Source: Bdellovibrionales bacterium
Lineage (GTDB): Bacteria; Bdellovibrionota; Bdellovibrionia; Bdellovibrionales; JAGQZY01
Assembly: GCA_041736155.1 (NCBI GenBank)
Contig: JBGSUL010000032.1
Location: forward strand, 16,554 to 80,553
Direction of reading: 5' to 3'
Length of the DNA stretch: 64,000 nt
The first letter of the stretch is position 1. Every line of letters starts with the position of its first letter. Of the stretch, positions 723-58,719 are shown one piece after another. Below the pieces are notes generated by a model. It was not told the origin of the DNA, ran no database searches, and saw nothing but the letters and a program-made list of their open reading frames with translations. Made by a program: the position numbers and the translations under genes.

Positions 723-989
723 TTACGCTGTTTTTGCTTCGGAATAAACGCTCACTTTAAATTTTTGCTTAGTGATACGCTCGAACTTTACCTGACCTTC
801 AATCACAGCATAAATTGTATGGTCACGGCCAATGCGTACATTGTTACCCACATAAAATTCTGTTCCTCTTTGACGAACAAGAATTGTACCTGGCTTTACA
901 GTTTCTCCACCAAAGCGTTTAACACCTAATCTTTTACTCTGACTGTCGCGTCCGTTTTTGGTACTACCGGCGGCTTTCTTCGATGCCAT
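723..989 (-). CDS. rpmA: 50S ribosomal protein L27
   Basis: 88 aa. [29 protein letters not shown]...ILVRQRGT is the L27 signature. It follows rplU. Confidence 0.97.
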
Positions 990-1003: not shown

Positions 1004-1552
1004 TTATTTTGTCTTTTTCGCAGCGGTTTTTTTAGCTGCCGACGTGGTTTTTTTTGCTACCTTTTTTGCTTTAGGAGCAGCGGCTTTCTTTTTAGGAGCA
1101 GCGGCGGCTTTTTTAGCAGTTTTAGCAGCTTTTTTTGCAACTTTAGTTTCTTTTGATGCGCCTGCATTGGCAGCCAATTTAGCGGCTTTTTTTGCAGGAT
1201 CTCTGACTGGCGCTTTTGTATCAGTCACTTCTTTTTCTCCGTTGGGAGAGATAATGGCTTTTACAAACAGCTCAGTGAATGGCTGACGATGACCTGTCAA
1301 ACGGCGATAGCCTTGACGGCGACGACGTTTAAAGATGATGATTTTTGGATTTTTACTCTGTTGAGTAACAACCACAGTCACCTTTGCATCTTTAACTAGT
1401 GGAGATCCGAAAAGGGAAGTTTGTCCTGAAACAACAAGGACTTCGTTCATATCAAATTCATCACCAAGATTTTTATTCAATTTTTCAACGCGAACGACGT
1501 CTCCCGCCTTCACTTTATACTGTTTGCCACCCGTGCGAATGACTGCGTACAT
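1004..1552 (-). CDS. rplU: 50S ribosomal protein L21 with a ~80-aa Lys/Ala-rich C-terminal extension
   Basis: The N-terminus MYAVIRTGGKQYKVKAGDVVRVEKL is canonical L21. The core is followed by repeats of the form AKKAAKLAAN...KKAAKTAKKAAAAPKKKAAAPKAKKVAKK. Confidence 0.95.
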   Translation of the reverse strand: MYAVIRTGGKQYKVKAGDVVRVEKLNKNLGDEFDMNEVLVVSGQTSLFGSPLVKDAKVTVVVTQQSKNPKIIIFKRRRRQGYRRLTGHRQPFTELFVKAIISPNGEKEVTDTKAPVRDPAKKAAKLAANAGASKETKVAKKAAKTAKKAAAAPKKKAAAPKAKKVAKKTTSAAKKTAAKKTK

Positions 1553-1642
1553 AGGACCTCCTAAAGGGGTTAAGAAGTGCCACAGCGCAAAAGTATTGTC
1601 AATGAAAGTAGCCGGAAAATGAGGCTCTTATAACCCAAAGAC

Positions 1643-1670
1643 TAAAAAAAATGGGCCGAGTAAGGCCCAT
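1643..1670 (-). terminator. Rho-independent terminator downstream of the histone-fold gene
   Basis: On the minus strand, ATGGGCC-TTACTC-GGCCCAT forms a 7-bp GC-rich stem and is followed directly by a run of 8 T. Confidence 0.8.
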
Positions 1671-1743
1671 CTGATTATTTTCAATATTATTCAATAAGTT
1701 CTATCTTTGATTAAGCTGCCCCGGGAGGGTCAGAATGCTTCAA

Positions 1744-1938
1744 TTAAAGATGATCGATAACGATATCGCGAGCCATAACCGTTTTACGGCCATCCGCTTT
1801 CGCAGATTCTGAACCCTTTTCGCAAAGAGCTTCAACGGCTTTGCTTAGAACATCAATTGTTTCAGCCGAAGTATTGAATCCATATTTTTCTTTAATATGC
1901 TTCTTAACTTTACTTGTGACGACGAGAACGTCTGCCAT
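1744..1938 (-). CDS. Small histone-fold DNA-binding protein (bacterial histone, DUF1931/HBb-like)
   Basis: 64 aa. The C-terminal AKADGRKTVMARDIVIDHL matches the L2/alpha3 RKT-x4-D motif of archaeal histones (HMfB ...AKHAGRKTIKAEDIEL, recalled from memory). There is a strong SD (AGGAGG) 5 nt upstream of the ATG and a dedicated terminator. Confidence 0.8.
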   Translation of the reverse strand: MADVLVVTSKVKKHIKEKYGFNTSAETIDVLSKAVEALCEKGSESAKADGRKTVMARDIVIDHL

Positions 1939-2100
1939 GGAGACCTCCTAGAGTGCTTAAATTGCTTTATAGAATTTATATTAGTGCTTTGGATAACTCA
2001 AAAGAAATAACCAACTGATGGAGTCATTCTGGCACTGCGCGGTGACGCTCAATAAGTAAGCTGACCTCTTATGATTTCAACTAGTTAGCTAGTGAGTTTC

Positions 2101-3561
2101 TTATAATTCCACCACGGATTCGCCCCGCACCTGCAGCATTTTTGCGGAGCGCCCGCCGTCTTCTTGAGGATATATCCACACAAAAGCCTTTTGCCCCTCT
2201 AATTTAGTGCATTCCACATCCAAAAAAGCGGGCGACCAGGTTCCCGGGTTCAGATGCTCTATGGCGCCAATGATTTCATGCCGTAAGGTGTGGGTGTGGC
2301 CATAAATGATTCTTTTTGTCGCCGTAATCAAGCCTGACATCGTTAAGGTCTCTTCATCGGGCTTTTTATAATAGGACACATAGGACTGCACGTTGCGACT
2401 ATAGATAAAGTAGGGTGGGAACAGCACTACCATGGGCAGCAACAACCAATAAAAAGAGATATCGTAAATGCGATCGATGAGAAGAAATGCATAAAGCACT
2501 AGAAAAAAACCGATCAAAATAAGAAAGGCACGATCCAGCCAAAGCTCTTTTAAAATTTTAAGTGGACTATCCGAAATGGGCTGCGCAAAAAGCTGTTGCA
2601 TCTCGCGCACCATGCGCGGAGAGGCGTTGGCTTTTTTGGCAATTTCATCAATGCGGTCTTCGATGGTTAACGGATTTTGCAAAGATCGCATCGTCGCATG
2701 ACGCAAAGTTTGAATAAATGTGACGAGTGTTGTCCAAAACCCGGTGAAAACAAGAAAGGGTTGCGCACGCAACATGTAACGAAAGTACACCTTGGTAAAT
2801 CCCCATGCCGATAATAAAAATGTCGAGTCCACATGGGGATTAAAAAATCCCATGCCGTTACTTAAGTAGCGACAGACGAGGTCTCCAAAAGGCAGGCGAA
2901 TAAGTAAGCGATTGTAATCAACCACCACGGGATTCACTGGATCTTTGCTGCAACAGAAGGGGTCGTGCTGATGCCCATGCTCTATCAAGGTGTCTTTGTT
3001 GCTGATATAAAACCATTCAACAAAACGCACTTGGCGTCGCTGTTCGGTGGTGAGCTGCAAAATATCCAAGATGCGTTTTTGCACATCGATCCAGTTGAGC
3101 TCGAGATCGTGATTTCCGATAACAAAAACGGCACGGTGCCCTCTGCGTATAAAATTGGATACCGCCTCGACCCAAAGAGGGTGGTCTCTCAATATCACTT
3201 CAATTTTGTAAATAGATTTCTCTTTTTCTGAATCTAAACCGCGGCGCGATTCCATCCACGAGACATGGTATCCAGGCTCTTCGGGGTGACTGGTCACGCT
3301 GTCAAAATCAAAGATATCCCCATTGAGAACCAGCTCCACTTCTTTTTCACCAGCTTGCGTTTCGAGATAATTAAGAAACGTTTGGAATTCGTGGTCAAAA
3401 AAAAATTCTTTGGACTTAAACTTTTTCCACAGCGGCCGGTGACGATGCGTCGGCTCCGCCTCACACAAATGCAGATCACTCACGACGGCGGTGAAAGCCG
3501 AGGTGGAAAAATCGACTTCTTCTGAAGAAAAGTCTATTTGTGTGGTGAGAGTTTCTACCAT
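2101..3561 (-). CDS. Calcineurin-like metallophosphoesterase with membrane-spanning insertion
   Basis: MPE motifs occur in order: VVSDLHL, NGDIFDFD, IGNHDLE, EHGHQHD, YGHTHT. Hydrophobic segments (AFLILIGFFLVLYAFLLI, FYWLLLPMVVLFPPYFIY) lie between the last two motifs. Confidence 0.75.
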   Translation of the reverse strand: MVETLTTQIDFSSEEVDFSTSAFTAVVSDLHLCEAEPTHRHRPLWKKFKSKEFFFDHEFQTFLNYLETQAGEKEVELVLNGDIFDFDSVTSHPEEPGYHVSWMESRRGLDSEKEKSIYKIEVILRDHPLWVEAVSNFIRRGHRAVFVIGNHDLELNWIDVQKRILDILQLTTEQRRQVRFVEWFYISNKDTLIEHGHQHDPFCCSKDPVNPVVVDYNRLLIRLPFGDLVCRYLSNGMGFFNPHVDSTFLLSAWGFTKVYFRYMLRAQPFLVFTGFWTTLVTFIQTLRHATMRSLQNPLTIEDRIDEIAKKANASPRMVREMQQLFAQPISDSPLKILKELWLDRAFLILIGFFLVLYAFLLIDRIYDISFYWLLLPMVVLFPPYFIYSRNVQSYVSYYKKPDEETLTMSGLITATKRIIYGHTHTLRHEIIGAIEHLNPGTWSPAFLDVECTKLEGQKAFVWIYPQEDGGRSAKMLQVRGESVVEL

Positions 3562-4304
3562 GTCAGTTTATTTTCTTTGGGCTCTATGACACTTAAAATA
3601 ATAATGGAAATTTCATACAGAAACACCAGTGGTATACCTAACAGCATCATACTGATCGCATCGGGGGGCGTGAAAACTCCTGCTACGATGGCAATTGCCA
3701 CAATGGCATACCGACGCATACTGCGCAAACCTCGACTGGAAACGATGCCCATCAATCCCAAGATGACAAGAATCAACGGCATCTCAAAGGCTGCGCCAAA
3801 AACCAAAATGGTCATAAAGAAAAAAGACATGTAATCGTTGATGGTGATCATCGGCACATCGACCGTCCCACCAAAAGACAAGAGGACTTTGAAAGCTGCG
3901 GGCAAAACTAAGAAATAGGCAAAACTGACCCCAGCAATAAACAGAAAAGAACCGAAGAAAATAAAATATCTTCCGTATTTTTTTTCTTTTTTGTAAAGCC
4001 CTGGCTCGATAAAACGCCAAACCTGATAAATCCAAACCGGGCACGATGCAATCAGCCCTGCTAAAATCGAAATCTTTAGATGCGCCATAAAAAGATCCGT
4101 CGGCGCCGTAAACACTAATCCTTTGCTCGGCAAAAAACCGACAATGGGCTTTCTGACAAAATCCATCACAAGTTCACTAAAATTCCAAGCGACAATGGTA
4201 AACGCAACGATCGCATAGAGTGAATAAACAATTCGCGTTCTGAGTTCCGAAAGATGTTCTACAAGGGTGTAGTTGTCTTGTTCAGGTGCTTGATTTTTTG
4301 TCAT
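3555..4304 (-). CDS. tatC: Twin-arginine translocase subunit TatC
   Basis: 249 aa and polytopic. It begins with LVEHLSELRTRI, the typical TatC N-terminus. It overlaps tatB upstream. Confidence 0.93.
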   Translation of the reverse strand: MTKNQAPEQDNYTLVEHLSELRTRIVYSLYAIVAFTIVAWNFSELVMDFVRKPIVGFLPSKGLVFTAPTDLFMAHLKISILAGLIASCPVWIYQVWRFIEPGLYKKEKKYGRYFIFFGSFLFIAGVSFAYFLVLPAAFKVLLSFGGTVDVPMITINDYMSFFFMTILVFGAAFEMPLILVILGLMGIVSSRGLRSMRRYAIVAIAIVAGVFTPPDAISMMLLGIPLVFLYEISIIILSVIEPKENKLTW

Positions 4305-4644
4305 CGTTTTCGTCCAGTTGATTTTGCTCGTGATTCTTTCTTAGCTCTTCTTCTAGATCGACCGTCACAGAATGCTCATCTTCAAGGAGTTGGTTGCGAA
4401 GATGATCTGTAGAGTCGTGGAGAGCATCTTGAATCTCGGCGATGGCGCCCAATCCTTCTTGCATTGGTTTTTTCAGATTTTCTTTCACCTCTAAGAGGCC
4501 GCCGGAAAGATCCGTCGTGGCCTTTTTAAACTCGTTCATCATGCGGCCCAACACTTTGGCCACCTCTGGAAGTTGTTTAGGACCAATGAGTAAAAGGGCC
4601 AAAACACCTATGATCATAATTTCTGAGAATCCGAGATTAAACAT
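4282..4644 (-). CDS. tatB: Twin-arginine translocase subunit TatB (TatA/B family)
   Basis: MFNLGFSEIMIIGVLALLLIGPKQLPEVAKVLGRMMNEFKKA closely resembles the E. coli TatB N-terminus (MFDIGFSELLLV...LGPQRLP), followed by an acidic tail. I chose M13 of the track ORF (4282..4680) as the start. Confidence 0.8.
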   Translation of the reverse strand: MFNLGFSEIMIIGVLALLLIGPKQLPEVAKVLGRMMNEFKKATTDLSGGLLEVKENLKKPMQEGLGAIAEIQDALHDSTDHLRNQLLEDEHSVTVDLEEELRKNHEQNQLDENDDKKSST

Positions 4645-4687
4645 GGGCTTCAGATTAACGATTCCACTCGTATCTGTCATCCCTTCT

Positions 4688-5314
4688 TTACTGATTTTTA
4701 GCTTGTTTTAAATTTTGTGGGTTAGTGAAAATGCCCTTTTCTAAAAGAATGTCCTGGGCCACGCCCGAACCTGTTTTGGCCTGATACTCCATCAAACGCA
4801 AGATATTGTCCTGCTCTGGGGCCATGGTTTTACGTCCCATCAGCATAAATACATCAACAAAGATGTTAAACTTTCGAGAAATTTCCAAATACATTTGCGA
4901 AAAGGAATCCTCGTATATCTCGCGCGAAAGCGAATGATAGGCCGTTGCTCCCATATCCATATAGTAATCCACATCGATGACCTTGCGCTGGAAAGAGTCG
5001 GCAAAAAAACCACTGATATAGAGCGCACTGTCGCCTAATTTTTTAAGCAGCTCGTACCTTTGTTTGGGCGCACTGTTTGCGGCTCGCAACATCATTTCGG
5101 CAAGCGTTTCTCGCGTTTTTTTACCAGAAGGGTCTTCTTCGTTAAAAAGATTGGTCGCCAGCAAGTAATAATTTAAAACGTCGACGAGATACGCCTCTAC
5201 TTGTGGCGCTGTTTCCACCCGCCTTTGTGTAAATGCTTCACGTAGACTTTGACGGAAATAGTCTTTGGAGTTTTCTGAGAAGGAGAGGTCTTTTTTTACA
5301 GCATCCGCGGCCAT
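4688..5314 (-). CDS. Hypothetical protein, 208 aa, soluble; first gene of the tatB-tatC-phosphoesterase string
   Basis: A long ORF with no motif I recognise. It sits 7 nt upstream of tatB on the same strand. Confidence 0.6.
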   Translation of the reverse strand: MAADAVKKDLSFSENSKDYFRQSLREAFTQRRVETAPQVEAYLVDVLNYYLLATNLFNEEDPSGKKTRETLAEMMLRAANSAPKQRYELLKKLGDSALYISGFFADSFQRKVIDVDYYMDMGATAYHSLSREIYEDSFSQMYLEISRKFNIFVDVFMLMGRKTMAPEQDNILRLMEYQAKTGSGVAQDILLEKGIFTNPQNLKQAKNQ

Positions 5315-5464: not shown

Positions 5465-8059
5465 CTAAAAAGTGGTTGTCATCTCGCGCGGTCCGACAAG
5501 TGACATCGCCGCTTTCTGTTGGAAGAGCTTCTCAGCCAGTTTTCTAACATCTTCTGTACCCACCGCCTTGACCCTTTTGGCGTAGTCGTAAATTTCTCGA
5601 TACGTCAGACCGTAGATTTCATTAAAAGCAATGGAGGACGAGATCGCTGAATTTTTTTGTAAACCAATGTCATGACCACCGATCAGGTAATTTTGTGCTC
5701 TTTCCAACTCGGCCTGTGAAATGGTTGTGCTCGCCATTTTATTCAACTCCTCTTTCATCATACGCAAAGCCGTCTCTAATTTTTCTGGTGAACAGCCAAT
5801 GTAAGTTGCAAAATAACCGCCATCCACTCCTTCCATGCGCAATGGCGAAACACTGTACGCCAAAGAGGCTTTGTCGCGAAGCTCGAGAAATAATCTACCA
5901 CCTTGTCCCGATAGCACAGCCTCTAGCACAGAAAGCGTATAGCGTTCTGGATCCGTCAATTTGAGTCCTCGAAATCCGTAAATAAGGTGGGCCTGCTCTT
6001 TTGCCGCGTGAGTGTATCGATACTGATTTTGCGTAAAAGCTTCGAGGGGTTGAGCCGCCATCGGTGTGGTGGTCACCTTGAATTGTAATTTTTCAAGCAT
6101 TTTCATCCACAAAGACTCTTCAAAACATCCGGAAATCGCTGCTACAGCTTGTGTTTGTTGTTGGTGAAAACGCAAACACTCTTCGACATCTTTTTTAGTC
6201 AACTGCGGGACTGACTCGAGAGTACCCAGGGGATCCAGAGCATAGCTGTGATTTGCAAACATCATCTGCTGAAACTGGAGTGAAGCGACGGCGCCAGGAG
6301 AATCTTTGCGAGAGCGCAGCGATTCTAACATCGAAGCTTTTTCGCGTTCGATGATTTCATCACTGAAATCGTACTCATTGTGCACTTGCAAAAATAAATC
6401 GGCCATTTCTTCTTGGTACCCGCTCACACCATCCACCACTAAGCCCAAGGTGTTTCGCCCCGAAAAAGAGTAAAGACTACTGGCCAGAGCATCCGTTTTG
6501 TCTCCCAAAACGTGCTCGCTCAGTTTTTTGGTTTGCGTTGTCCAAACGCGTCCCGCAAGCTCGGCTAATCCCGCCTTTGCCAAGGGCATCGCTCGTCCAC
6601 CGCCCAAAAAGACCAAACGCATATTATATATAGCGGCCTCATCTCCCCAGCGGTAAAACAAAGGAATGTTTTGCGGCAATGTCTTCTGCTGAATACTCCC
6701 CGCATTCGTTGGGGCTTCTGTGAGTTTTGTTTTTCTGTAATCGTGAGCTTTGTTGGGCGCTGTTTCTTTCCCACCTTGAGGTAGACGAAAATCCCATGTC
6801 TCTAACATTTTCTGAACCGCTGTTTTGTCTTTGGGTACAACTGCCGACATCACGTAGTTTTTATTTTGTAGATACTCGCGTGCGACCGCTAAAACGGCTG
6901 CCGTATTTACTTTTTCCATTTTTTCTTGGAATTTTTCGTGAAAATACAAATCATTGGTGGCTTCGTAATTGCCGCCATATTTGCGTGCCAGCCCACCGAC
7001 GGTCTCAATAGTATACGCTTCTTCTGCTAAAAAATTTGTTTTAGCTTTTTGTAGCTCTTCTTCCGTGACACCTTTTTCTAAAATTTCGGAAATCTGCTCG
7101 CTAATCAGTGAAAGCGTGGTGGCTAGTTTTTCTCCATTGAGACTTGCCGTCACCGAAAGAAACCCTGGGCTTTGTGTCGGCGCCCATAATCCCGCACCGA
7201 TGGAATTCACACAGTTTTCCTGCAAACGAAGTTTACGATAGAGGCGTGAACTTCCTCCTTGTCCCAAAATTAAAAAGAAACATTCAAGGGCCGCCATATC
7301 TTCGTGATTGATCGATACCCCTGGCCAACCGATATACAATATCGTTTCTTCAAAAGGCGCTTCTTCCACCACCACACGTTTGCCTTTGGCAAAAGCCCAT
7401 GCATCGCGCTTGGGCTTTTGTACTTTGAGTGGCTTTTGGTCGCCAAAAATAGTTCCCACTTTTTGCTGAAAATCGGAAGCGTTAAAATCGCCAGTCACAA
7501 TTAAAAACATATTTTCGGGCACATATCTCTCGGCGAAAAATGCACGCAATTTTTCCACAGAAACTTCTCGCACGTTTTGTTCATAACCAATGACTGGAAC
7601 GGCATAGGGGTGCCCTTCATACATTTGTGAGAAAAAAAGACGGCTGGCGCGACGACCTAGACTGTCGTGACTGCGTTTAATTTCTTCAATCACCACTTCG
7701 CGCTCACGGTCCACCTCGAGAGAGTCAAAAAGTGGTGTCGTCACCATGTCGGCGATAATTTTCATAGCTTCGTCGGCAAAGTGTTTAGAAATAGTGATGT
7801 AATAAACGGTTTGATCGAAAGATGTATAGGCATTGATTTCCCCGCCACAGCCCTCAACACGTGCCGCGATTTCACCAGCACGATACCGAGCTGTGCCTTT
7901 AAAAACCAAATGTTCGATAAAATGACTCAACCCCTCTTCCTGCGCGCGCTCGTCCGCGCTACCATTACGGGTCCATATTTGAACCGATACGACAGGTGAT
8001 TTGTGACTTTCAATGCCGATGACTTTAAGGCCTTTACTCGTTGAAAATTCATGAATCAT
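5465..8059 (-). CDS. Two-unit M16 (pitrilysin-family) zinc peptidase
   Basis: HFIEHLVFKGT is the HxxEH inverted zinc motif and REREVVIEEI supplies the downstream Glu. A second M16-like half is fused. The start is taken at MIHEFSTSKGLKV (M70 of track ORF 5465..8266), because the upstream extension would overlap hemW. Confidence 0.88.
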   Translation of the reverse strand: MIHEFSTSKGLKVIGIESHKSPVVSVQIWTRNGSADERAQEEGLSHFIEHLVFKGTARYRAGEIAARVEGCGGEINAYTSFDQTVYYITISKHFADEAMKIIADMVTTPLFDSLEVDREREVVIEEIKRSHDSLGRRASRLFFSQMYEGHPYAVPVIGYEQNVREVSVEKLRAFFAERYVPENMFLIVTGDFNASDFQQKVGTIFGDQKPLKVQKPKRDAWAFAKGKRVVVEEAPFEETILYIGWPGVSINHEDMAALECFFLILGQGGSSRLYRKLRLQENCVNSIGAGLWAPTQSPGFLSVTASLNGEKLATTLSLISEQISEILEKGVTEEELQKAKTNFLAEEAYTIETVGGLARKYGGNYEATNDLYFHEKFQEKMEKVNTAAVLAVAREYLQNKNYVMSAVVPKDKTAVQKMLETWDFRLPQGGKETAPNKAHDYRKTKLTEAPTNAGSIQQKTLPQNIPLFYRWGDEAAIYNMRLVFLGGGRAMPLAKAGLAELAGRVWTTQTKKLSEHVLGDKTDALASSLYSFSGRNTLGLVVDGVSGYQEEMADLFLQVHNEYDFSDEIIEREKASMLESLRSRKDSPGAVASLQFQQMMFANHSYALDPLGTLESVPQLTKKDVEECLRFHQQQTQAVAAISGCFEESLWMKMLEKLQFKVTTTPMAAQPLEAFTQNQYRYTHAAKEQAHLIYGFRGLKLTDPERYTLSVLEAVLSGQGGRLFLELRDKASLAYSVSPLRMEGVDGGYFATYIGCSPEKLETALRMMKEELNKMASTTISQAELERAQNYLIGGHDIGLQKNSAISSSIAFNEIYGLTYREIYDYAKRVKAVGTEDVRKLAEKLFQQKAAMSLVGPREMTTTF

Positions 8060-8076
8060 TGTTATAGTCCCTCTCG

Positions 8077-9252
8077 ATGTTGGGTTTATATTTTCACATT
8101 CCCTATTGTTTGCAGCGCTGTCGTTATTGCGATTTTGCAACTTATGTTTTTGATGAGATTCTTCCGCCCGAAGAATATATCTCGTTGGTCCAAGCAGAAA
8201 TTCAGCAAAAACAGAACTGGTTTCAGCAAAAAAAAATTCACTCCATCTACTTTGGCGGGGGAACACCCAGCCTTCTGGACGCTGATCTTATCATAACGCT
8301 GTTGGAAGAGATTGCAAAGTATGATGCAGTTATTTCACCCGATACAGAAATAACCTTAGAAATCAATCCGGCCACTTTGAATCCAAAAAAAATTGAGCGC
8401 CTTTTAAAGGGTGGGATCAACCGCTTCTCGGTGGGCGCGCAAACTTTTCACGATCACCACCTCAAAGCAGCGGGCCGAAAACACTCGAGCGCCGAGACGC
8501 GCCAGACTTTGGACTTGTTAAAATCGTTTGGCATCAATTACAGCTTCGATCTGCTTTTTGCACTTCCCCAGCAGACACTGGAGGAGTTGAAACAAGATTT
8601 GGCGATCATTGCCGAATATTCTCCTCCTCATCTCAGTGCCTATTGCCTCACGGTCCCCGAGGGCCACCCGATGTCTTACAATCGCCCCAATGAAGATCAC
8701 CAAATCACTATGTTTCAAATGATCGAAAGTGACCTCTCGGCCATGGGTCTCCTCCGATATGAAATATCGAATTTTGCCAAACCGTCTTTTGAATCCAAAC
8801 ACAATTTGCTCTATTGGCAAGATCAAGATTTTTTAGGATTTGGTCTAAGTGCTCATTCGTATTTAAAGTCTTTTTCTCCATGGGGAAACCGCTTTGGAAA
8901 CCCCTCGAGTATCGAAAAATACAAACAAATGATTTTGCAACCCGCCTCGCAATTTATCGACAAACTCCAGAAAGAAAAAACCTGGGAAACACTTTCTCTC
9001 GCAGCCGCACTTTTTGACTTCGCGCACACCTCATTGCGTTTAGAAATAGGACTTGATGAAAATTCTTTACACCAAAAATTTTCTCCGCTGGTGACACTGC
9101 CTTTGCGTCAAGAGCTTGCGCGACTTCTCCGCGAGGGATTATTGCACCAACCCCGTTTGCATTGTTGGACATTGACAGAAAAAGGCCGCCACCTCAGCAA
9201 CTACGTCTTCTCCTGCCTTCACGCGCAGATTCCCGAATTGACAAGTTCTTAG
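8077..9252 (+). CDS. hemW: Radical-SAM HemN-like heme chaperone HemW
   Basis: MLGLYFHIPYCLQRCRYCDF carries the CxxxCxxC radical-SAM cluster at the extreme N-terminus. The 391-aa length fits HemW. Confidence 0.88.
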   Translation: MLGLYFHIPYCLQRCRYCDFATYVFDEILPPEEYISLVQAEIQQKQNWFQQKKIHSIYFGGGTPSLLDADLIITLLEEIAKYDAVISPDTEITLEINPATLNPKKIERLLKGGINRFSVGAQTFHDHHLKAAGRKHSSAETRQTLDLLKSFGINYSFDLLFALPQQTLEELKQDLAIIAEYSPPHLSAYCLTVPEGHPMSYNRPNEDHQITMFQMIESDLSAMGLLRYEISNFAKPSFESKHNLLYWQDQDFLGFGLSAHSYLKSFSPWGNRFGNPSSIEKYKQMILQPASQFIDKLQKEKTWETLSLAAALFDFAHTSLRLEIGLDENSLHQKFSPLVTLPLRQELARLLREGLLHQPRLHCWTLTEKGRHLSNYVFSCLHAQIPELTSS

Positions 9253-9316: not shown

Positions 9317-9865
9317 ATGAACGAAGAAAATAACTCCAACACTCCTGAAACCCCTGAGAAAACCGGCATTCAAGATGGTGACCTGGAAACAGAAGCTTCC
9401 ACGATTGAATCTCTTCAAGATGAAATCAGCAAACTCAAAAATGAGTACCTTTATTTACGCGCCGAATTTGATAATTATCGCAAGCAAGCCATCAAAGAGC
9501 GTTCTGATTTGGTGAAATTTGGCGGCGAGCGACTTGCTAAAGACCTTCTTGAGACTCTTGATATTTTCGAATCCGCACTGGATTCTGATATTTCTGCCGA
9601 TACTTTGAAAAATTTTGTGTCTGGCATTGAGCTGACCGCACAGCAACTGCGTGCCGCGCTGACAAAACACAATATTCAAGAGCTTCCCGCCCTCGGCCAA
9701 GCTTTTGACCCTTATGTGCATGAGGCTCTCGGATCAGAGGTCTCTGATACGATCGCCCCTGGACACGTCTCGCGTGTTTTCAAAAAAGCTTATAAGTATC
9801 ACGATAAAGTTCTGCGCCCTGCACAAGTGATCGTTGCAAAAGAATCTACTGCCAAAGAAAAGTAG
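9317..9865 (+). CDS. grpE: Nucleotide exchange factor GrpE
   Basis: 182 aa. It has a coiled-coil N-terminus and KNEYLYLRAEFDNYRKQ, the GrpE signature (R-x-AEF-x-N-x-RKR-like). Confidence 0.93.
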   Translation: MNEENNSNTPETPEKTGIQDGDLETEASTIESLQDEISKLKNEYLYLRAEFDNYRKQAIKERSDLVKFGGERLAKDLLETLDIFESALDSDISADTLKNFVSGIELTAQQLRAALTKHNIQELPALGQAFDPYVHEALGSEVSDTIAPGHVSRVFKKAYKYHDKVLRPAQVIVAKESTAKEK

Positions 9866-9904: not shown

Positions 9905-10783
9905 ATGAGTAAAAATTATTACGAAATTTTAGAGCTCACGCCAACAGCTTCTTTTGATGAAATCAAAAAGTCCTTTCGTAAACTGGCACTCAAATACCAC
10001 CCCGATAAAAATCCCGGCGATGTGGCTAGCGAAAATAAATTTAAAGAAATCAATGCCGCTTATTCTGTATTGTCTGACCCTTTTAGAAAAAGTGATTACG
10101 ATCGTGTGCACTTTCCTCCCAAACCAGCCAGCAAAACGCCCACGAAACAATCAAGCAAACAGCACACCCGCGCCGCCACAAAATCGCCAACCATCACCGT
10201 GGGCAAAAACCTTCTTTATCATCTCAATCTCACCTTAGAAGAGGCTTTTTCTGGAGCCCTCAAAACCATTTCTTACGTACGAACTGTCAACGGTGTAAAA
10301 ACCACCTCACATCTGGATGTGACGATCCCCGCAGGAATTCGCGATTCTAAAAAGTTGCGCGTGCGCGGGGCTGGCGAATCTCTCTCCGCCCAACAGCGCG
10401 CCGGAGATCTGGTCGTACATATCCATATTCTCCCCCATAAGTATTATATTTTGGAGGGCGACGACATTTTGTTGAAAATGCCGGTGTCGTGGATTGATTT
10501 TTTACTCAAGGAACCCGTCGTGATTCCCACTCTCCATGGCCCCATTCCACTGCCCATTCCAAAGGAAGATGAATTTGGCGTTGCCGGGTCAAAATTAGAA
10601 GGCCGGGGATTCCCTGTCGATGAAAAATCTCGCCATTTTGGGGACCAATATATTCGTTTTATTGTTGATGTCCCCACCTCTTTGAACGAAAATCTTAAAG
10701 AAAAACTGCGGGCACTCAAAAAAGATATGCCCCTCAGCGATTGGCAGAAAGAAATTCTTTCGCTTTCGGAGAATAAAAAATGA
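9905..10783 (+). CDS. cbpA: J-domain co-chaperone, CbpA-like (no zinc-finger domain)
   Basis: YYEILELTPTASFDEIKKSFRKLALKYHPDKNPGD is a J domain with HPD. DnaJ C-terminal beta domains are present but there are no CxxCxGxG repeats. Confidence 0.8.
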   Translation: MSKNYYEILELTPTASFDEIKKSFRKLALKYHPDKNPGDVASENKFKEINAAYSVLSDPFRKSDYDRVHFPPKPASKTPTKQSSKQHTRAATKSPTITVGKNLLYHLNLTLEEAFSGALKTISYVRTVNGVKTTSHLDVTIPAGIRDSKKLRVRGAGESLSAQQRAGDLVVHIHILPHKYYILEGDDILLKMPVSWIDFLLKEPVVIPTLHGPIPLPIPKEDEFGVAGSKLEGRGFPVDEKSRHFGDQYIRFIVDVPTSLNENLKEKLRALKKDMPLSDWQKEILSLSENKK

Positions 10784-12918: not shown

Positions 12919-15315
12919 ATGGATCAAAGTAATCTGAATATCCCTGAGACAATCCCGATGCTGCCTGTCCGCGACATTGTCATTTTCCCTTATATGATTA
13001 TTCCTTTATTTGTAGGAAGAGAAGCATCGATTCAAGCGGTAGAAGAAAGCTTGAGCAAAAATCGACTCATCTTTTTAGCGTCTCAAAAAGAATTTAACGA
13101 AGAAACTCCTTCACCGGAATCGATCTACAAAACAGGAACTGTGGCAATGATCATGCGCATGCGCAAACTTGCTGATGGCCGAGTGAAGATTCTTATTCAA
13201 GGTGTAAGCAAAGCGCGCGTAACGCAATACACACAAAAAGAGCCCTTCTTTAAAGTTTCTGTAGAAAAAATTGAAGACTCCTCTGTTTCGAGCGAAGAAA
13301 ATAAACTTCTTGTTGAGCCTCTTATTAAGACAGCAAAAGAACATCTAGAAAAAGTCATCGCCCTTGGAAAGATGCTTTCTCCTGATATTCTTCTTGTTTT
13401 GGACGACATCCAAGAACCTGGACGTATCGCTGACTTAATCGCTAGCAATCTTGGTCTCAAAGTTTCTGATGCTCAGGGAATCTTAGAAACACCTGATCAT
13501 ATAGAGAGACTGAAGCAGGTCATAAATTTGTTAGCCGCAGAGTTTGAAACTCTGCAACTTCAATCCAAAGTCCGTTCGTCATCTAAAGATGATATGACCA
13601 AGTCTCAACGCGAATACTTTTTGCGTGAGCAAATGAAGGCTATAAAGAATGAACTGGGTGAGCAAGACTCTAAAACTGATGATTTAGAAGACGTTCGTAA
13701 AAAAATCCAGTCCTCTGGTATGCCTGCTGATGTAGAAAAAGAAGCCTTAAAACAACTGGGCCGACTTGAGCGCATGCATCCAGACGCCAGTGAAGCTTCT
13801 ATGCTCCGCACTTATCTCGAGTGGATGGTTGATCTTCCATGGGGTAAAGAGACAGAAGATTCGATTGATCTTAAAGTTGCCAAACAAATTCTTGAAACAG
13901 ATCATTTCGGTCTCGAAAAAGCTAAAGATCGTATTCTTGAATTTCTTGCTGTGAGAAAACTAAAAGAAACTATCAAAGGACCTATTCTTTGTTTTGCTGG
14001 ACCTCCAGGAGTGGGTAAAACTTCACTCGGAAAGAGCATTGCCAAGGCTATGGGAAGAAAATACTTCCGCATTTCTCTCGGCGGCGTGAAAGACGAAGCT
14101 GAAATTCGTGGTCACCGTAGAACGTATGTCGGAGCTATGCCCGGCAAAGTGGTTCAAGCTCTTAAACAGTGCGGAACCAGAAACCCGGTATTTGTTCTTG
14201 ATGAAATTGACAAACTTGGCAGTGATTTCCGTGGAGATCCAAGTGCTGCAATGTTGGAAGTTTTAGATCCAGAACAAAACGCCACATTCCGTGATAACTA
14301 TTTGAATGTGGATTTTGATTTAAGCAAAGTTTTATTCATTGCTACAGCCAACAACTTGGAAAACATTCCACCTGCTCTACGTGATCGTATGGAAATCATC
14401 CAACTTTCTGGTTACACAGAGAATGAAAAGCTTGAAATTGCTATGCAGCACATTGTTCGTAAACAACTTGAAAACCATGGTGTTTCCGATGATCAGTGCC
14501 GCTTTACCTCAGACGCTGTAGCTTATTTGATCGGTCATTACACTCGTGAAGCTGGTCTACGTAATTTAGAAAGAGAAGTGGGTTCGGTTTGCCGTAAAGT
14601 TGCTAAAAACATCGTTATGGGCGACCTCTCCTCCGTCACTATCACTAAAGAAAAAGTGATCGAATATCTCGGAGGTCCTCGTTTCTTGAGAGAAGACCGT
14701 ATGAACGAAGATGCCATCGGTGTCTCAACAGGTCTGGCTTGGACACAAGCTGGTGGTGAAGTTCTTTATGTGGAAGCTCTCGGCATGAAAGGCAAAGGTG
14801 GGGTAACTCTCACTGGCCAAATGGGTGACGTGATGAAAGAATCTGCAACGGCAGCACTTTCCTACGCTCGTGCACATGCGGAACAACTTGGTATTGCTCC
14901 CGATTGGTTTGAAAATAACCATATTCACATCCATCTTCCTGCTGGCGCTATTCCTAAAGATGGTCCATCTGCGGGAATCACTATGGCGACAGCCATTATT
15001 GGTTTGATCACAGAGGTGCCAACCAATCGCGATGTGGCTATGACGGGAGAAGTGACTTTAACCGGTCGTGTTCTTCCTATCGGTGGTGTTAAAGAGAAAT
15101 GCCTTGCCGCCTTCAATCACGGTGCAAAAACAGTGATTTTACCGATGGCGAACAAAAAGGATATCGTTGATATCCCCGATGAGATTCGTAACAAACTGAA
15201 GTTTTTCTTTGTGGAACATCTCGATGAGGTTCTTCACATTGCTCTGAATTCCGATGCTAAAAAGTCGACTCAGGGACGCAAAAAGAAGCATAAATCTACT
15301 GAGGCCGCTGCTTAA
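12919..15315 (+). CDS. lon: ATP-dependent Lon protease (LonA)
   Basis: 798 aa. It has the Walker A motif GPPGVGKTS, catalytic DGPSAGIT (Ser) and GGVKEK (Lys), and the N-terminal LON domain [12 protein letters not shown]. Confidence 0.98.
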
Positions 15316-15985: not shown

Positions 15986-17197
15986 ATGAAACTCTCCCAC
16001 AAAAAGAAGATCGCCCTCGTCCTTAGTGGGGGTGGTATTAAAGCTGCTGCCTTTCATATCGGTGTTTGCTTAGCCTTAAAAGAAAAAGGATTTAAGTTTG
16101 CCGGCGGGACCAAAGAGGAAGTTTCGGCCCGTTACGGAAGTGATGAACTCACCATAAAATTCTATGTAGGTTCCAGCGCTGGTTCGGTGATTAGCACATT
16201 TCTTGCGGCTGGTTATTCCCTCAATTCGATCATCCATGCTTTTGAACGTGGCTCCACTGAAATTTCTGATGGTTTGAAAACTGAAAAACCTTTCGATGAA
16301 GATCTCAGTCCACTCACCTATCGCAATATCTTTTCTTTGAACACCAAAGAAATGTTACAGATGTTTCCCAACCTGATTAAGAATCGCGGCTCTTCCATCG
16401 TCACCGGTGGCTTTGAAGTTTTGATCAAAAATGGCTTTAAGCTCAATGGACTCTTCTCGACTAAAGGCTTGGGAAAGTATATTCGCGATGAAGTTTGGAA
16501 AAGTGATTCTTTTGCGGATTTGGGTGTGGACCTCTACATTGTGGCCACACAACTCAATCAAAGTAGAAAAGTTATCTTTTGTGCAAAAGATGAAATGTCC
16601 AAGGATCAATCGGTTCTTTATGCCAACTACGCCAGTGTCAGCGATGCGGTTGCCGCTTCTGCAGCTTTACCGCCCGCCTTTTCTCCCTACGCCATTAAAA
16701 ACCGCGATGGTAATGACATTTACTTTTTTGATGGAGAAATTCGCGACACATTATCTTCTCACATCCCCGTGGATCATGGTGCAGACTTGGTCATCGCCAG
16801 TTATTCCATTCAGCCCTATAACTACAACAAAGTGATGGGAAGTCTTCATCAGTATGGAATTCCGGTGATCCTCAACCAGGCCCTTTATCAGGTTGTTCAG
16901 CAAAAAATCGAGAACGCCATTAAGGCCAGAAAATCCATCGAAACTGTCTACAAAGCGGTGGATGGATATTTAAAACAGATAAACATCGCCGATGAACATC
17001 GGCAGAAACTTCTTGAGATCATTACAGAAAGAACAAACTACAAGCCGCAAACGGACTATATTTACATCCATCCACACCCGCAAGACTACCGAACCTTCTT
17101 TGCGGATCATTTTAGTTTGAACCCACAAATTCTCAAAGATACTGTTCAAGCTGGATTTAGGTCAGCCCTCAATGCTTTGAGAAAATGGGATATCTAA
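15986..17197 (+). CDS. Patatin-like phospholipase
   Basis: LVLSGGGIKAAAF is the oxyanion GGGxK, GSSAGS is the GxSxG nucleophile, and FDGEIRD is the DG catalytic Asp. The start is taken at MKLSHKKK, while the track ORF starts at the alternative codon at 15947. Confidence 0.85.
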   Translation: MKLSHKKKIALVLSGGGIKAAAFHIGVCLALKEKGFKFAGGTKEEVSARYGSDELTIKFYVGSSAGSVISTFLAAGYSLNSIIHAFERGSTEISDGLKTEKPFDEDLSPLTYRNIFSLNTKEMLQMFPNLIKNRGSSIVTGGFEVLIKNGFKLNGLFSTKGLGKYIRDEVWKSDSFADLGVDLYIVATQLNQSRKVIFCAKDEMSKDQSVLYANYASVSDAVAASAALPPAFSPYAIKNRDGNDIYFFDGEIRDTLSSHIPVDHGADLVIASYSIQPYNYNKVMGSLHQYGIPVILNQALYQVVQQKIENAIKARKSIETVYKAVDGYLKQINIADEHRQKLLEIITERTNYKPQTDYIYIHPHPQDYRTFFADHFSLNPQILKDTVQAGFRSALNALRKWDI

Positions 17198-17883
17198 CCC
17201 TTTCGACGTTGCCAGCTGTGTTCACCGTTTCCAAATTTTGGTTTTTTACAATAAAGCCACTCAAGGCTTTTCTTTTGTGAATCGTTGCAGCGACCCTTTT
17301 CACCACCCTGGAATGAGGAGCAGATTTTATCCTCGATGTAATCACACGGCAAAAAACGCGGCGACTTCCATTCTGTGCTCGCGAAAGCATAAAAGTTGGC
17401 CGTTCCCCAAAAAATACTATCCCACATTCCCATGGAAAGTCCCTGACTGCCTTTGACCACAATTTGGCTGTTCTTTGGAATATCCAAAGTTAAAAGATAA
17501 CCCTGCACATGCTCTGGATTGCTCATCACCGAGCATGCCGTGTTATCGTAAACGACACTCACACGATTTTTTTTTGCTAGTGGGACGATGTGTTTATCCA
17601 AGTAAGCTAGCGTCCACCAATAATCTAACCAATGCCCCACAAAACCAACTTCAATTTGATCACCTTTAGAAATATTTGGAAGGTGCGACGCTAACGACTC
17701 ATGTGGCTTTCGGTCGACCACAGTTTTGGTAGAACAGGATCGTTGCGCCATCCACATTTGGCAGCCTTCTTTAAAAAAAGCTTTTTGATTTTTCTCCCGG
17801 CCAATTTCGCAAGCGCAATGAGTCGCCGAAAATGCCTGTTTCGAAATAATTATGAAAATAAAAAAAAAGAGAAATCTCCTCAT
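17194..17883 (-). CDS. Secreted Cys-rich hypothetical protein
   Basis: MRRFLFFFIFIIISKQAFSA is a signal peptide. The mature part contains many Cys and Trp residues and no recognisable motif. The start is taken at M17 of track ORF 17194..17931. Confidence 0.55.
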   Translation of the reverse strand: MRRFLFFFIFIIISKQAFSATHCACEIGREKNQKAFFKEGCQMWMAQRSCSTKTVVDRKPHESLASHLPNISKGDQIEVGFVGHWLDYWWTLAYLDKHIVPLAKKNRVSVVYDNTACSVMSNPEHVQGYLLTLDIPKNSQIVVKGSQGLSMGMWDSIFWGTANFYAFASTEWKSPRFLPCDYIEDKICSSFQGGEKGRCNDSQKKSLEWLYCKKPKFGNGEHSWQRRKG

Positions 17884-17983
17884 GGTCCCCACCCCCGTGA
17901 ATTTATTACATCCTTGGGTGGGCGTTATCAAGATCTCAAGGTAACAGCCTGCAATACAAAAAGGGAACTGTTACCTAGAGTTC

Positions 17984-19471
17984 CTAGAGAGAGTAGGACA
18001 CGGCTGTTTGGACAAACTTAAATAATGGTGCGGAGAATATTCCAAAAATAATCATCACCAAAGCCATGACAAGGGCGATCGCTTGCGTCAGATAAGCACT
18101 CGACGAAACTGTCATTGTGCCCCCCTCGTGCATATACATCGTGACGATGGGGCGAAGGTAAAAATAAACACCAATGGCAGAGCCCACCATAGCCATAACC
18201 CCCAGCCAGAAAAACCCTTGATTCATCACTGCGGCGATTAAATAAAATTTGCCGAAGAATCCTAACGTGGGAGGAAGTCCTGCGAGGCTTAATAATAAAA
18301 CAGCCAAAGCAAACGCGGCGAGTGGTGCGCGATACGCAAGGCCCTTAATATCATCAATCAATAAAATACTATCGGCTTTGCTCTCCAATGCTGAAACGAT
18401 GGAGAACGATCCGATGGTCATAAGAACGTAAGTGAGCAGATAAAAAAGTAAACTCGTTGTTCCTTCTTCAGAGGATACACCAAATCCGGCCGCCACTAAA
18501 CCCAAGAGGGCATAACCAGAATGCGCTATGCTCGAGTAAGCCAACATACGCTTAATGTTTTCTTGGCGGAGAGCAGCCAAACTACCACCGATAATCGTGA
18601 GAACCGCTAACCACTGCAGCACATACACAAGATGAGATTCTTCGACGGCATCGGTGTATAAAAAGAGTCTTAAGAAGGCAATAAAACAGGCCAGCTTTAC
18701 TCCCGTGGCCATCAATGTGGTCACTGGCGTCGCGCTCCCTTGATAAACATCGGGTGCCCAGGCATGAAACGGCATCAATGAAACTTTAAATGCCATTCCC
18801 GCAATCAGCAGTCCCATTCCTAATATAAAAATTTTGCTACTTACAAATAGCTCAGCGCTCTTTACACCAATCTCCTGCAACATTACAGTTCCTGTGGATC
18901 CGTAAACAAAGGCAATCCCATAAAGAAAAATAGCCGAGCCCACAGCGCCAAGAACAAAATATTTAAACGCAGCTTCTTTGGAGAGAACTTGTTCTTTACT
19001 CAAGGCGATCAAAATATAAATACTCAATGACATTAATTCGATGGCGATAAATGTAATCAAAAGATGATTGGCCATGGTGACCAACACCATACCCACCACA
19101 GCACTGAGAACGAGAAAAATATGTTCAGAAAACTGATGATCGCGCGTCGCTTTGTTTTCATAAAGCTGCATCAGCACAAAGCCCGCAATAATATAGAGCA
19201 CATACGCCGCCCACACGGCGATGCCGTCAACGATGAGCGCGCCAGAGAACGCTGTGATAAAATTTAATTCAGAAAGACGCCAATAACCACTGACCAAAGA
19301 AATATTTAAACCGGCCGCCGCAACCACGCCGACAATCGCCCACACTAACGAAACAAACGGCGCCATCTCCCGCCCGCGAAAAGCTTTGACGGAAATTGGA
19401 ATCAAACTCGCCAAAAACAAAACAATCAGAGGACTAAGGACTAAAAGATCGGCGGGATTTACGGGCAACAT
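17984..19471 (-). CDS. nuoN: NADH-quinone oxidoreductase subunit N
   Basis: A polytopic antiporter-like protein and the last gene of the nuo string. The start at MLPVNPADLL lies 1 nt after the nuoM stop. Confidence 0.9.
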   Translation of the reverse strand: MLPVNPADLLVLSPLIVLFLASLIPISVKAFRGREMAPFVSLVWAIVGVVAAAGLNISLVSGYWRLSELNFITAFSGALIVDGIAVWAAYVLYIIAGFVLMQLYENKATRDHQFSEHIFLVLSAVVGMVLVTMANHLLITFIAIELMSLSIYILIALSKEQVLSKEAAFKYFVLGAVGSAIFLYGIAFVYGSTGTVMLQEIGVKSAELFVSSKIFILGMGLLIAGMAFKVSLMPFHAWAPDVYQGSATPVTTLMATGVKLACFIAFLRLFLYTDAVEESHLVYVLQWLAVLTIIGGSLAALRQENIKRMLAYSSIAHSGYALLGLVAAGFGVSSEEGTTSLLFYLLTYVLMTIGSFSIVSALESKADSILLIDDIKGLAYRAPLAAFALAVLLLSLAGLPPTLGFFGKFYLIAAVMNQGFFWLGVMAMVGSAIGVYFYLRPIVTMYMHEGGTMTVSSSAYLTQAIALVMALVMIIFGIFSAPLFKFVQTAVSYSL

Positions 19472-19472
19472 A

Positions 19473-21014
19473 TTAGTTATTCTCCTGTGCTGGCTCGGTC
19501 TCTGAACCGTAAATTTTGAGCTGATAATTGTTTTTATTCTCAATGAAATGTCGAATCGACGTTTCGCTGTAGGATAAAAAATGTTGAGGGAAAATCCCCA
19601 TCCAGAAGATCAGAACAACGATGGGCGAAAGCACCAACTTTTCGCGCAGGCTCAGATCGAGCATGCCTTTGTGTTTCACAACTGTTTCTCCAGCTTCGCC
19701 AAAGAAAACTTTTTTCACCATCCACAACATATAGGCTGCGCCAAGGATCACACCCAGAACGGCGACTCCCGCTAAATATTTATTGTAACCATAAGTTCCA
19801 AGGAGAACTAAAAACTCTCCCACAAACCCATTGGTCATCGGAACTGCTATGCTTGAAAAGGTGATGATCAAAAAGAAAATGGCGTAGATAGGCATCGCCT
19901 TGGCGAGACCGCCGTATTTAGCAATTTCGCGTGTATGGGTTCTCTCGTAGATCATACCCACCAAAAGGAATAATCCACCAGTACTCACACCATGCGCAAG
20001 CATTTGATAAAGACCACCTGTCACACCAAAACTATTGAGTACAAATAAACCCACTATCACATAACCCATATGGGAAACTGATGAGTACGCCACCAGTTTT
20101 TTTATGTCGACTTGCACCATGGCCACAAGAGCTCCGTAAATTATACCGATGACACCGACGGCGATAAATAACCATCCCCAGGCCGCTGCCGCTTCAGGAA
20201 AAACGGGGAGAACAAAACGTACAAAACCATACGTTCCCATTTTCAACATCACCCCCGCAAGTATAACTGATCCCGCAGTAGGAGCTTGAACGTGCGCATC
20301 AGGAAGCCACGTGTGCAATGGAAAGACTGGCACTTTGATAGCAAAGGCCACTGCAAACGCAAAGAATAACAGCGTTTGTGGTGTAAAAAAGTCGCCCGCA
20401 ACAAAAGGAATGTTCAGCTGATAAAAATCGAGAACACTGGCGCTATAGTAACCAAGCTGCGCTTTACATTGCAAAATCATGTAAACAATGGCTGCAAGCA
20501 TAAAGACTGAACCGGCCATGGTATAAATAAAAAACTTATAGGTGGCATAGATTCTGTTTTCGCCACCCCAGATTCCAATCATAAAATACATCGGAACAAG
20601 TGAGAGTTCGAAAAACAAATAGAAAAGGACACTGTCGATCGCCAAGAAAGAACCTATCACCGCCGCTTGCAAAACAAACAAAGCAATGTGAAAGCCTTTG
20701 ACGTTTTTCTCAATCGCAGTCCAGCTAGCACCGATCACGAGCGGCGTGAGAAGTGAGGTCAGTAACACCAAAAGAACCGACCAGCCATCGACACCCAAAA
20801 AGTACGAAATCCCATAATCCGGAAGCCAATTGGCATACTCCACCAACTGAAGATCGGCGCTCCCTTTATCAAATTTATTCAGCAGCAATAAACTTTCCGC
20901 AAAAAGGAATAAAGAGCTGAGGAGAGAAAAGCGACGGATCGCTTCGGCAGAATTTACAAAAAGTAAAACTCCAGCAATCATCAACGGCAGTATAATCAAA
21001 CTCGTTAAAAACAT
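19473..21014 (-). CDS. nuoM: NADH-quinone oxidoreductase subunit M
   Basis: 513 aa, antiporter-like, with LHTWLPDAHVQAPTAGSV (NuoM/ND4 signature). Confidence 0.93.
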   Translation of the reverse strand: MFLTSLIILPLMIAGVLLFVNSAEAIRRFSLLSSLFLFAESLLLLNKFDKGSADLQLVEYANWLPDYGISYFLGVDGWSVLLVLLTSLLTPLVIGASWTAIEKNVKGFHIALFVLQAAVIGSFLAIDSVLFYLFFELSLVPMYFMIGIWGGENRIYATYKFFIYTMAGSVFMLAAIVYMILQCKAQLGYYSASVLDFYQLNIPFVAGDFFTPQTLLFFAFAVAFAIKVPVFPLHTWLPDAHVQAPTAGSVILAGVMLKMGTYGFVRFVLPVFPEAAAAWGWLFIAVGVIGIIYGALVAMVQVDIKKLVAYSSVSHMGYVIVGLFVLNSFGVTGGLYQMLAHGVSTGGLFLLVGMIYERTHTREIAKYGGLAKAMPIYAIFFLIITFSSIAVPMTNGFVGEFLVLLGTYGYNKYLAGVAVLGVILGAAYMLWMVKKVFFGEAGETVVKHKGMLDLSLREKLVLSPIVVLIFWMGIFPQHFLSYSETSIRHFIENKNNYQLKIYGSETEPAQENN

Positions 21015-21021
21015 TTCTTCC

Positions 21022-25306: not shown

Positions 25307-25566
25307 CCGATGTTCCTCTTGTTTGCTGTTTCTCGTGCTTCGACAATTTGAAACACGCGGACACGCTTTATAATGTAAGACCAATCTAATTAACTATAGG
25401 AAGTTGCTACAAATTTCGAGCTCTTTTTCTATTCACAACCTTCATGATTGGCTGCGTAACAAACGCTTCAAAGGACGCTCTTTTCCGAGCGTATTTTGCA
25501 ACTCTCTTTTCCACCCTCTCTTTTGCCACTGTCTTATTGTGCGAACTTGTGAGAAACGTGAGGCTC

Positions 25567-58591: not shown

Positions 58592-58643
58592 GAGAGTGAA
58601 AGGCGATCGTCCCAGACCATCGTCTTAGCACTCTCTTTATCTT
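58592..58643 (+). terminator. Rho-independent terminator after atpE
   Basis: An extended imperfect stem forms from GAGAGTG-A-AAGGCGAT...ATCGTCTT-AG-CACTCTC. It is followed by TTTATCTT. Confidence 0.6.
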
Positions 58644-58719
58644 GTCTCACCCTAAGACAAATTGTGATTTAAAAAGAGACGCCACTAAGGTTTTTACCTG
58701 TGACTCCGATAAGATACCT

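Follow-up and report, generated by a model that had tools for sequence, protein, structure and literature searches.

Sequence-based identification of an HBb (Bd0055) histone ortholog in an uncultured Bdellovibrionales bacterium

The stretch of DNA analysed (64 kb, hereafter the window), which derives from an uncultured Bdellovibrionales bacterium, bears on its minus strand a gene (1744..1938) that, judged from its sequence, is an ortholog of the gene specifying the histone HBb (Bd0055) of Bdellovibrio bacteriovorus. The ORF list of the window shows it to comprise 64 codons plus a TAA, running from an ATG at position 1938 to a stop codon ending at 1744; no competing ORF of at least 40 aa overlaps it on either strand. 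A preliminary description of this DNA had reported a 64-aa ORF at 1744–1938, and it was recovered with exactly the sequence quoted there, on the minus strand. When the protein was used to search the sequences in the PDB, it aligned with HBb over its full length and without gaps, 55 of the 64 residues being identical (86%; E = 3e-28). The HBb entries matched were 8fvx/8fw7 and 8cmp/9ezz/9f0e; weaker matches were found to archaeal HTkC and HmvA, to the Leptospira histone HLp and to HMk. The protein previously described as a stand-alone histone-fold protein can be named as the HBb/Bd0055 ortholog. Nothing in the data speaks against orthology, and the gene is an ordinary addition to a characterised family, which 67% of the genomes in the clade had already been reported to carry.

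An AlphaFold2 model built from 52 homologs (mean pLDDT 82) was assigned by DSSP an α1 helix spanning residues 2–19, a 25-residue α2 (25–49) and an α3 of only three residues (56–58). The top five Foldseek matches in the PDB were all HBb structures (TM 0.74–0.81, rmsd ∼1.9 Å), followed by HLp, HTkC and HmvA and then by many eukaryotic (H2B/H4-type) and archaeal histones. The single histone fold proposed in the preliminary description is borne out by this superposition on the HBb crystal structures; both a histone fold and similarity to histones, the absence of which had been named as grounds for abandoning the proposal, were found. The RKT-x4-D motif to which attention had been drawn is also present (R51 K52 T53 VMAR D58), and aligns with the GRKT...D of HmvA and HTkC. 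In HBb, DNA is contacted by T8, S9, K10, K12, K16, N22, T23, S24, A25, K52, T53 and R57, an R51-D58 clamp is reinforced by D49, and the dimer core is formed by V11, L31, I35, L38 and I59 (PMC11317129). All 12 of the DNA-contact residues are identical in the window protein, as are R51, D58 and D49 of the clamp; the dimer core is identical at four of five positions, the fifth carrying the conservative change I35V. The positions that are of the non-tetramer type in HBb (S45, A48 and I61) are likewise the same, A48 replacing His49 of HMfB. The RKTxxxxD motif, S9-K10 and the α1 lysines K12, K13 and K16 are present and invariant, or nearly so, in the 52 homologs, and across the alignment of these 52 members conservation of the functional residues is complete or no lower than 90%. 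Nine substitutions distinguish the protein from HBb (E3D, L14H, G19Y, Q20G, M21F, I35V, Q37A, L40E and V43S), all of them in family-variable columns of the same alignment; with a pI of 7.9 as against 8.9, it is a little less basic than HBb. The 86% identity and the conserved core V11, L31, V35, L38 and I59 suggest that it would form a homodimer and no higher oligomer.

The best overall explanation, which we consider very probably correct, is that this HBb ortholog acts as an abundant, genome-wide, HU-like bending dimer. This reading joins the orthology, residue conservation, fold, selection and gene signals observed here to the published experiments on HBb, by analogy with which the window protein would dimerise, bind and bend DNA, be abundant and be essential. 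Dimeric in solution, HBb stands 12th among the 2125 proteins ranked in attack-phase cells, and no protein of the nucleoid fraction is more abundant; attempts to delete its gene failed in two laboratories. It binds DNA with micromolar affinity and independently of sequence, covering the genome in DAP-seq (PMC11317129). In the mechanism envisaged, the 7-kDa protein would form a single shortened histone fold (α1, L1, a short α2, L2 and a one-turn α3) and, by homology, a homodimer. Contact with DNA would be made through the paired L1-L2 loops (N22, T23, S24 and A25 together with K52, T53 and R57), the L2 loop being fixed by the R51-D58(-D49) clamp, and further contacts would be provided at the start of α1 (T8, S9, K10, K12 and K16). 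Binding would be non-sequence-specific, and at ordinary occupancy single dimers would bend, and so compact, the DNA. At saturating density, dimers may pack side by side to give an end-on coat on straight DNA.

How HBb binds DNA is disputed between two groups, one favouring straight end-on filaments and the other bending. It is possible, if somewhat doubtful, that the form prevailing in the cell is a nucleohistone filament, in which end-on dimers, each using a single L1-L2 interface, build a protective sheath on straight DNA with one dimer per ∼2.5 bp. This arrangement was deduced for HBb from the co-crystal 8fw7, from analytical ultracentrifugation (AUC), which indicated more than 60 dimers per 147 bp, and from the lack of end-to-end FRET (PMC10627809); the very high abundance of HBb in the compacted attack-phase nucleoid fits it as well (PMC10627809), and both the N-terminal ADVL tail and the α2 acidic face, which this model uses for dimer-dimer contacts, are kept in the window protein. 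Against it, a second crystal form with an additional α1 DNA interface, TPM, ligase-circularisation and topology assays, and MD simulation all indicated HU-like bending of ∼84 degrees per dimer and compaction, while MNase digestion of HBb-DNA revealed no protection (PMC11317129). The group reporting these results points out that crystal packing or high density might account for the filament (PMC11317129). The conserved residues fit the bending and the filament models equally well, so the window cannot tell them apart. A 2025 preprint states the in vivo function of HBb to be unknown, and reports that its expression peaks late in the growth phase. The preliminary description called the DNA-binding mode and distribution of proteins of this type poorly explored, which is out of date: crystal structures with and without DNA from two groups, DAP-seq and essentiality data exist, as well as a classification across prokaryotes and the structure of a Leptospira histone.

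Both groups agree that, for want of a tetramer interface, HBb is unable to wrap DNA in (hyper)nucleosomes. It is highly improbable that the window protein belongs to the archaeal-type nucleosomal histones and wraps DNA in tetramer-based (hyper)nucleosomes, even though it has the histone fold and the RKT-x4-D motif common to both kinds and shows weak, sub-threshold matches to PF00808 (CBFD_NFYB_HMF) and to the NCBIfam archaeal histone model NF043032 (21.9 bits versus a cut-off of 50). The protein has A48 at the position of the tetramerisation His, together with S45 and I61, and with these residues would be expected to form no (hyper)nucleosomes; in addition, α2 is short and α3 has just three residues. 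HBb, which is identical at these positions, produced neither a FRET signal nor an MNase ladder, and modelled hypernucleosomes fell apart. Only as the A48H/S45F/I61L mutant does HBb wrap DNA, these mutations being sufficient for it to do so (PMC10627809).

The match to PF00808 was the best obtained with any Pfam model and a borderline miss (20.1 bits versus a cut-off of 21.4); a few close homologs (P0063 and P0106) do have a precomputed match to it. The shortfall is a borderline failure of the model and provides no evidence against the fold. Core histone PF00125 scored 17.9 bits (cut-off 26.4), and DUF1931 (PF09123) 17.8 bits (cut-off 21.8; E = 0.0039), in the latter case over model positions 19–55 of 138 only. 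The sole Pfam matches of the 64-aa protein are thus to histone-fold models, and since all the Pfam and NCBIfam models remain below threshold, the family assignment rests on the direct match to HBb. The weak DUF1931 match, and the fact that the depositors of the HBb structures name it 'CBFD_NFYB_HMF domain-containing', might suggest a DUF1931-type protein unconnected with chromatin, or else an NF-Y/CBF-type transcription factor with sequence specificity. We regard this as very unlikely: DUF1931 scores under its cut-off and less well than PF00808, a 2024 survey sets DUF1931 proteins apart as a category without the customary DNA-binding residues (PMC11390915), all of which the window protein has, and the DAP-seq of HBb showed no sequence specificity (PMC11317129). 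The DUF1931 label used in the preliminary description is thus not appropriate, although the same name is attached, in UniProt-style naming, to the Leptospira histone in PDB 9qt0. The 2024 survey defined a 'bacterial dimer' category by sequence clustering (PMC11390915), and the properties of the HBb-type members, i.e. similarity to HBb, a single fold of ∼60–65 aa and no extra domain or tail, are all found in the window protein. Indeed, every sequence and structure feature of these α3-truncated histones that could be tested is present in it, while those that define archaeal nucleosomal histones or Pfam DUF1931 are not.

The protein has numerous relatives. At E ≤ 1e-3, a word-indexed search returned 1077 homologs; identities were 80–91% among the best 120, which were mostly of 64 aa and whose names were mostly absent, 'hypothetical' or 'histone H3/H4'. 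An exhaustive search of representatives at 50% identity gave 518 clusters at E ≤ 1e-3, and in contigs from one genome per species relatives were encoded at 291 loci, the best 80 of which belonged nearly all to Bdellovibrionales, Pseudobdellovibrionaceae or Bdellovibrio (top identity 97%). An identical protein, together with 3132 nt of identical DNA, was found on a contig assembled from run SRR28170465. For the histone gene, pN was 0.03–0.09 versus a pS of 0.54–0.95, and in pairwise Nei-Gojobori comparisons with 79 orthologs the median pN was 0.10 versus a median pS of 0.73; dN/dS against the orthologs, where dS could be computed, was 0.01–0.07. These sequence comparisons indicate that the gene is under strong purifying selection. 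When the window was searched by tblastn with its own histone, HBb and HMfB, no second histone gene (Bd3044-like) was detected, nothing else reaching E < 1.

Some of the proteins retrieved deserve separate mention. Among the clusters of the representatives search were HBb-like tandem doublets, two of which (P0121 and P0128, of 133 and 149 aa, both from outside the window) keep SK...NT(S/A)...DGRKT(L/V)M(D/E)RD in both halves and are nearer to HBb (45–54% identity) than the DUF1931-type doublets are. A 4007-aa protein with 20 'histone' stretches (P0130) was discarded as a false positive, its matches being due to a 26-residue motif in perfect tandem repeats. One locus (L044; JBLMWG010000244.1) is a 3.4-kb contig binned in a 'Bacillota bacterium' MAG; it carries a phosphoesterase gene paired with a histone gene whose product is 88% identical to the window protein, and is most likely a mis-binned Bdellovibrionales contig.

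The gene is preceded by a full Shine-Dalgarno sequence (AGGAGG, 1949..1944, minus strand), separated by a 5-nt spacer (TCTCC) from the ATG at 1938. The preliminary description had called this site near-perfect; it is in fact complete, and is conserved in the four closest genomes (L001–L004). Only three of the 33 window genes checked have a full AGGAGG upstream, namely the histone gene, rplU and the ORF at 44166..44696. A strong terminator of its own had also been attributed to the gene, and a terminator scan did identify one at 1672..1641 (minus strand), ∼70 nt past the histone stop codon, where it separates the histone gene from rplU-rpmA. It consists of a hairpin (1672..1649) with a 9-bp G+C-rich stem and a 6-nt loop, followed by T8; its folding energy is –16.4 kcal/mol (z = –3.8 relative to dinucleotide shuffles). 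Orthologous loci (e.g. L001 and L026) have a hairpin and T-run at the equivalent position, with unrelated stem sequences; the hairpins in L001 and in Bdellovibrio sp. HCB274 have energies of –15.8 and –17.7 kcal/mol, respectively. That the position is kept while the stem sequence differs is the pattern expected of a conserved terminator. An sRNA match in Rfam lying on this terminator was at chance level and was rejected, and between the histone gene and rplU no RNA element (e.g. an L21 leader) reached the Rfam gathering threshold.

The 70 nt preceding the ATG (1939..2008, minus strand) are 79–85% identical to those of the four closest genomes, identity falling to 20–37% farther upstream; synonymous sites of the histone gene are near saturation (pS 0.62–0.74). 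This conserved block, which probably includes a promoter and the 5′ leader, contains a TTGAGT (2001..1996) and the overlapping A/T-rich, –10-like hexamers TAATAT (1983..1978) and TATAAA (1980..1975), all on the minus strand. A scan for the sigma-70 consensus called no promoter on this strand, the block being missed because the spacer is 15 nt long. The promoter considered plausible in the preliminary description thus gained a conserved block with recognisable hexamers, while a match to the sigma-70 consensus was not obtained. The block also contains a DnaA-box-like 9-mer, TTATCCAAA (1996..1988), which was set aside as a chance match: it has one mismatch, its position is not conserved in L001–L004 and there are 35 such one-mismatch matches in the window. 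The perfect Shine-Dalgarno site, a promoter-leader block of its own and its own terminator would together allow the gene a high output. The idea that the ORF is a mere chance open frame in the spacer between the phosphoesterase gene and rplU, to which only its length of just 64 codons lends itself, can be rejected in view of the 1077 homologs, an amino-acid sequence kept although synonymous sites are saturated, the perfect Shine-Dalgarno site, the terminator and the solved structures of a homolog.

Immediately upstream of the histone gene, in the same orientation, lies a gene (2101..3561, minus strand) coding for a calcineurin-like metallophosphoesterase of 486 aa (Pfam Metallophos). Its catalytic domain is split, the Pfam matches covering residues 25–197 and 416–445, and the insertion contains two hydrophobic segments that are probably membrane-spanning. 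A phosphoesterase gene is found immediately upstream and co-oriented in 52 of the 75 histone loci with enough upstream sequence, at a distance of 107–345 nt; in loci without it, tatC usually adjoins instead. In the window the two genes lie 162 nt apart with a conserved promoter-like block between them, which argues for separate transcription, so the pairing with the phosphoesterase is treated as synteny; a histone-phosphoesterase operon was rejected on these grounds and since tatC stands next to the histone gene where the phosphoesterase is missing.

On the other side are rplU (1004..1552, minus strand), which specifies ribosomal protein bL21 (182 aa; Pfam L21p at residues 1–100), and rpmA (723..989, minus strand). 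The bL21 of the window ends in a tail of ∼80 residues that is rich in Lys, Ala and Pro and histone H1-like (AKKAAK..., APKKKAAAPKAKK...), which the bL21 proteins of the five closest relatives (174–179 aa) also have. Among PDB matches, bacterial bL21 chains mostly measure ∼100–115 aa, with a maximum of 147 aa. The adjacency of the histone gene to rplU-rpmA was seen only in the five closest loci and in L081, and is lineage-specific. The stretch that runs from the terminator of the histone gene to the Shine-Dalgarno site of rplU (1553..1640, minus strand) has a perfect TTGACA within a block (TTGACAA-ACTTTTGCGCTGTGGCA) conserved in the window and in L001–L004. No good –10 hexamer is evident in it; it is probably the promoter of rplU-rpmA. 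It might be imagined that the histone and the membrane-anchored split phosphoesterase, paired in ∼70% of histone loci across Bdellovibrionales even with other neighbours altered, form a conserved functional unit near the origin, joined in this lineage to the growth-rate operon rplU-rpmA-obg. Should either the phosphoesterase or the tailed bL21 assist the histone in compacting or remodelling the nucleoid, this would be new biology; we consider it improbable, and inherited synteny accounts for the observations equally well.

The rest of the window is a housekeeping segment of a Bdellovibrionales chromosome that includes oriC. Beyond the phosphoesterase gene, the minus strand bears tatC (3555..4304), a tatA/B-like ORF (4282..4680) named from its position beside tatC, a 208-aa ORF (4688..5314) and a 933-aa ORF (5465..8266). 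The 208-aa ORF belongs to no Pfam or NCBIfam family above threshold, and is found with 45–72% identity next to tatB/tatC in 17 related loci. Further along are, on the plus strand, genes for a radical SAM enzyme (8077..9252), grpE (9317..9865), a dnaJ-like gene (9905..10783), lon (12919..15315) and mfd (25444..29025), and, on the minus strand, genes for complex I/Mrp-type antiporter subunits (17984..22953) and yidC (44708..46291). A 613-aa ORF (58642..60483, plus strand) and a 245-aa ORF (17194..17931, minus strand) had no Pfam match at E ≤ 1e-5. The 64 kb contain no tRNA gene, and in Rfam no family reached the gathering threshold. The genes dnaA, dnaN, recF, gyrB and gyrA (47147..56115, plus strand), the change of sign of the GC skew at 46–48 kb and five DnaA-box-like 9-mers at 48660–48793, from the end of dnaA into the dnaA-dnaN spacer and each with one mismatch to TTATCCACA, show that the window contains oriC; the chromosomal origin region corresponds to 46292..48915. 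The histone gene lies ∼47 kb to the left of oriC and is transcribed leftward, co-directionally with replication, a location that may afford added gene dosage. In four complete Bdellovibrio genomes the ortholog lies ∼50 kb into the record, in agreement with the low locus number of Bd0055.

Taken together, the interpretation offered in the preliminary description is supported, with the provisos that the DUF1931 label is imprecise, that the field is better explored than was assumed and that the promoter is deduced from conservation. Beyond correct annotation, which matters since both Pfam histone models fall narrowly short of threshold and pipelines leave the family unnamed, the finding is of little consequence: it adds one more natural variant of an essential bacterial histone whose DNA-binding mode in vivo is disputed, and the ortholog opens no new question. 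The fact that the nine substitutions avoid the DNA-contact and clamp residues gives small comparative support to the importance of those residues.

Among known systems, the closest is HBb/Bd0055 of B. bacteriovorus HD100, which shares with the window protein the length of 64 aa, the clade (Bdellovibrionales), the fold (predicted TM ∼0.8) and an origin-proximal gene, as in the complete Bdellovibrio genomes. The window protein differs from it by its nine substitutions and lower pI, and its lineage by the presence of rplU-rpmA downstream. HLp of Leptospira (PDB 9qt0–9qt2, 'DUF1931 domain-containing protein') is also a bacterial singlet with a truncated α3 and the RKT motif (Foldseek TM 0.67–0.74; phmmer E = 4e-5), but is only ∼38% identical. 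HLp is abundant and nucleoid-enriched in Leptospira, the histones of which have been linked to the face-to-face group, with a different oligomerisation (PMC11390915). The archaeal histones HMfB and HTkA (PDB 1A7W and 5T5K) share the histone-fold dimer, the L1-L2 minor-groove phosphate contacts and the RKT-x4-D motif with its RD clamp; in contrast, the α2 of the window protein is about one turn shorter and its α3 has one turn rather than three, it lacks the His49-type tetramer interface and the sprocket arginine and, by homology, would produce neither wrapping nor an MNase ladder. The mode of action proposed here for the window protein, with abundant small dimers that bind unspecifically, compact DNA by bending it and stiffen it at high density, resembles that of HU/IHF; since the folds are unrelated, the resemblance is a functional analogy only.
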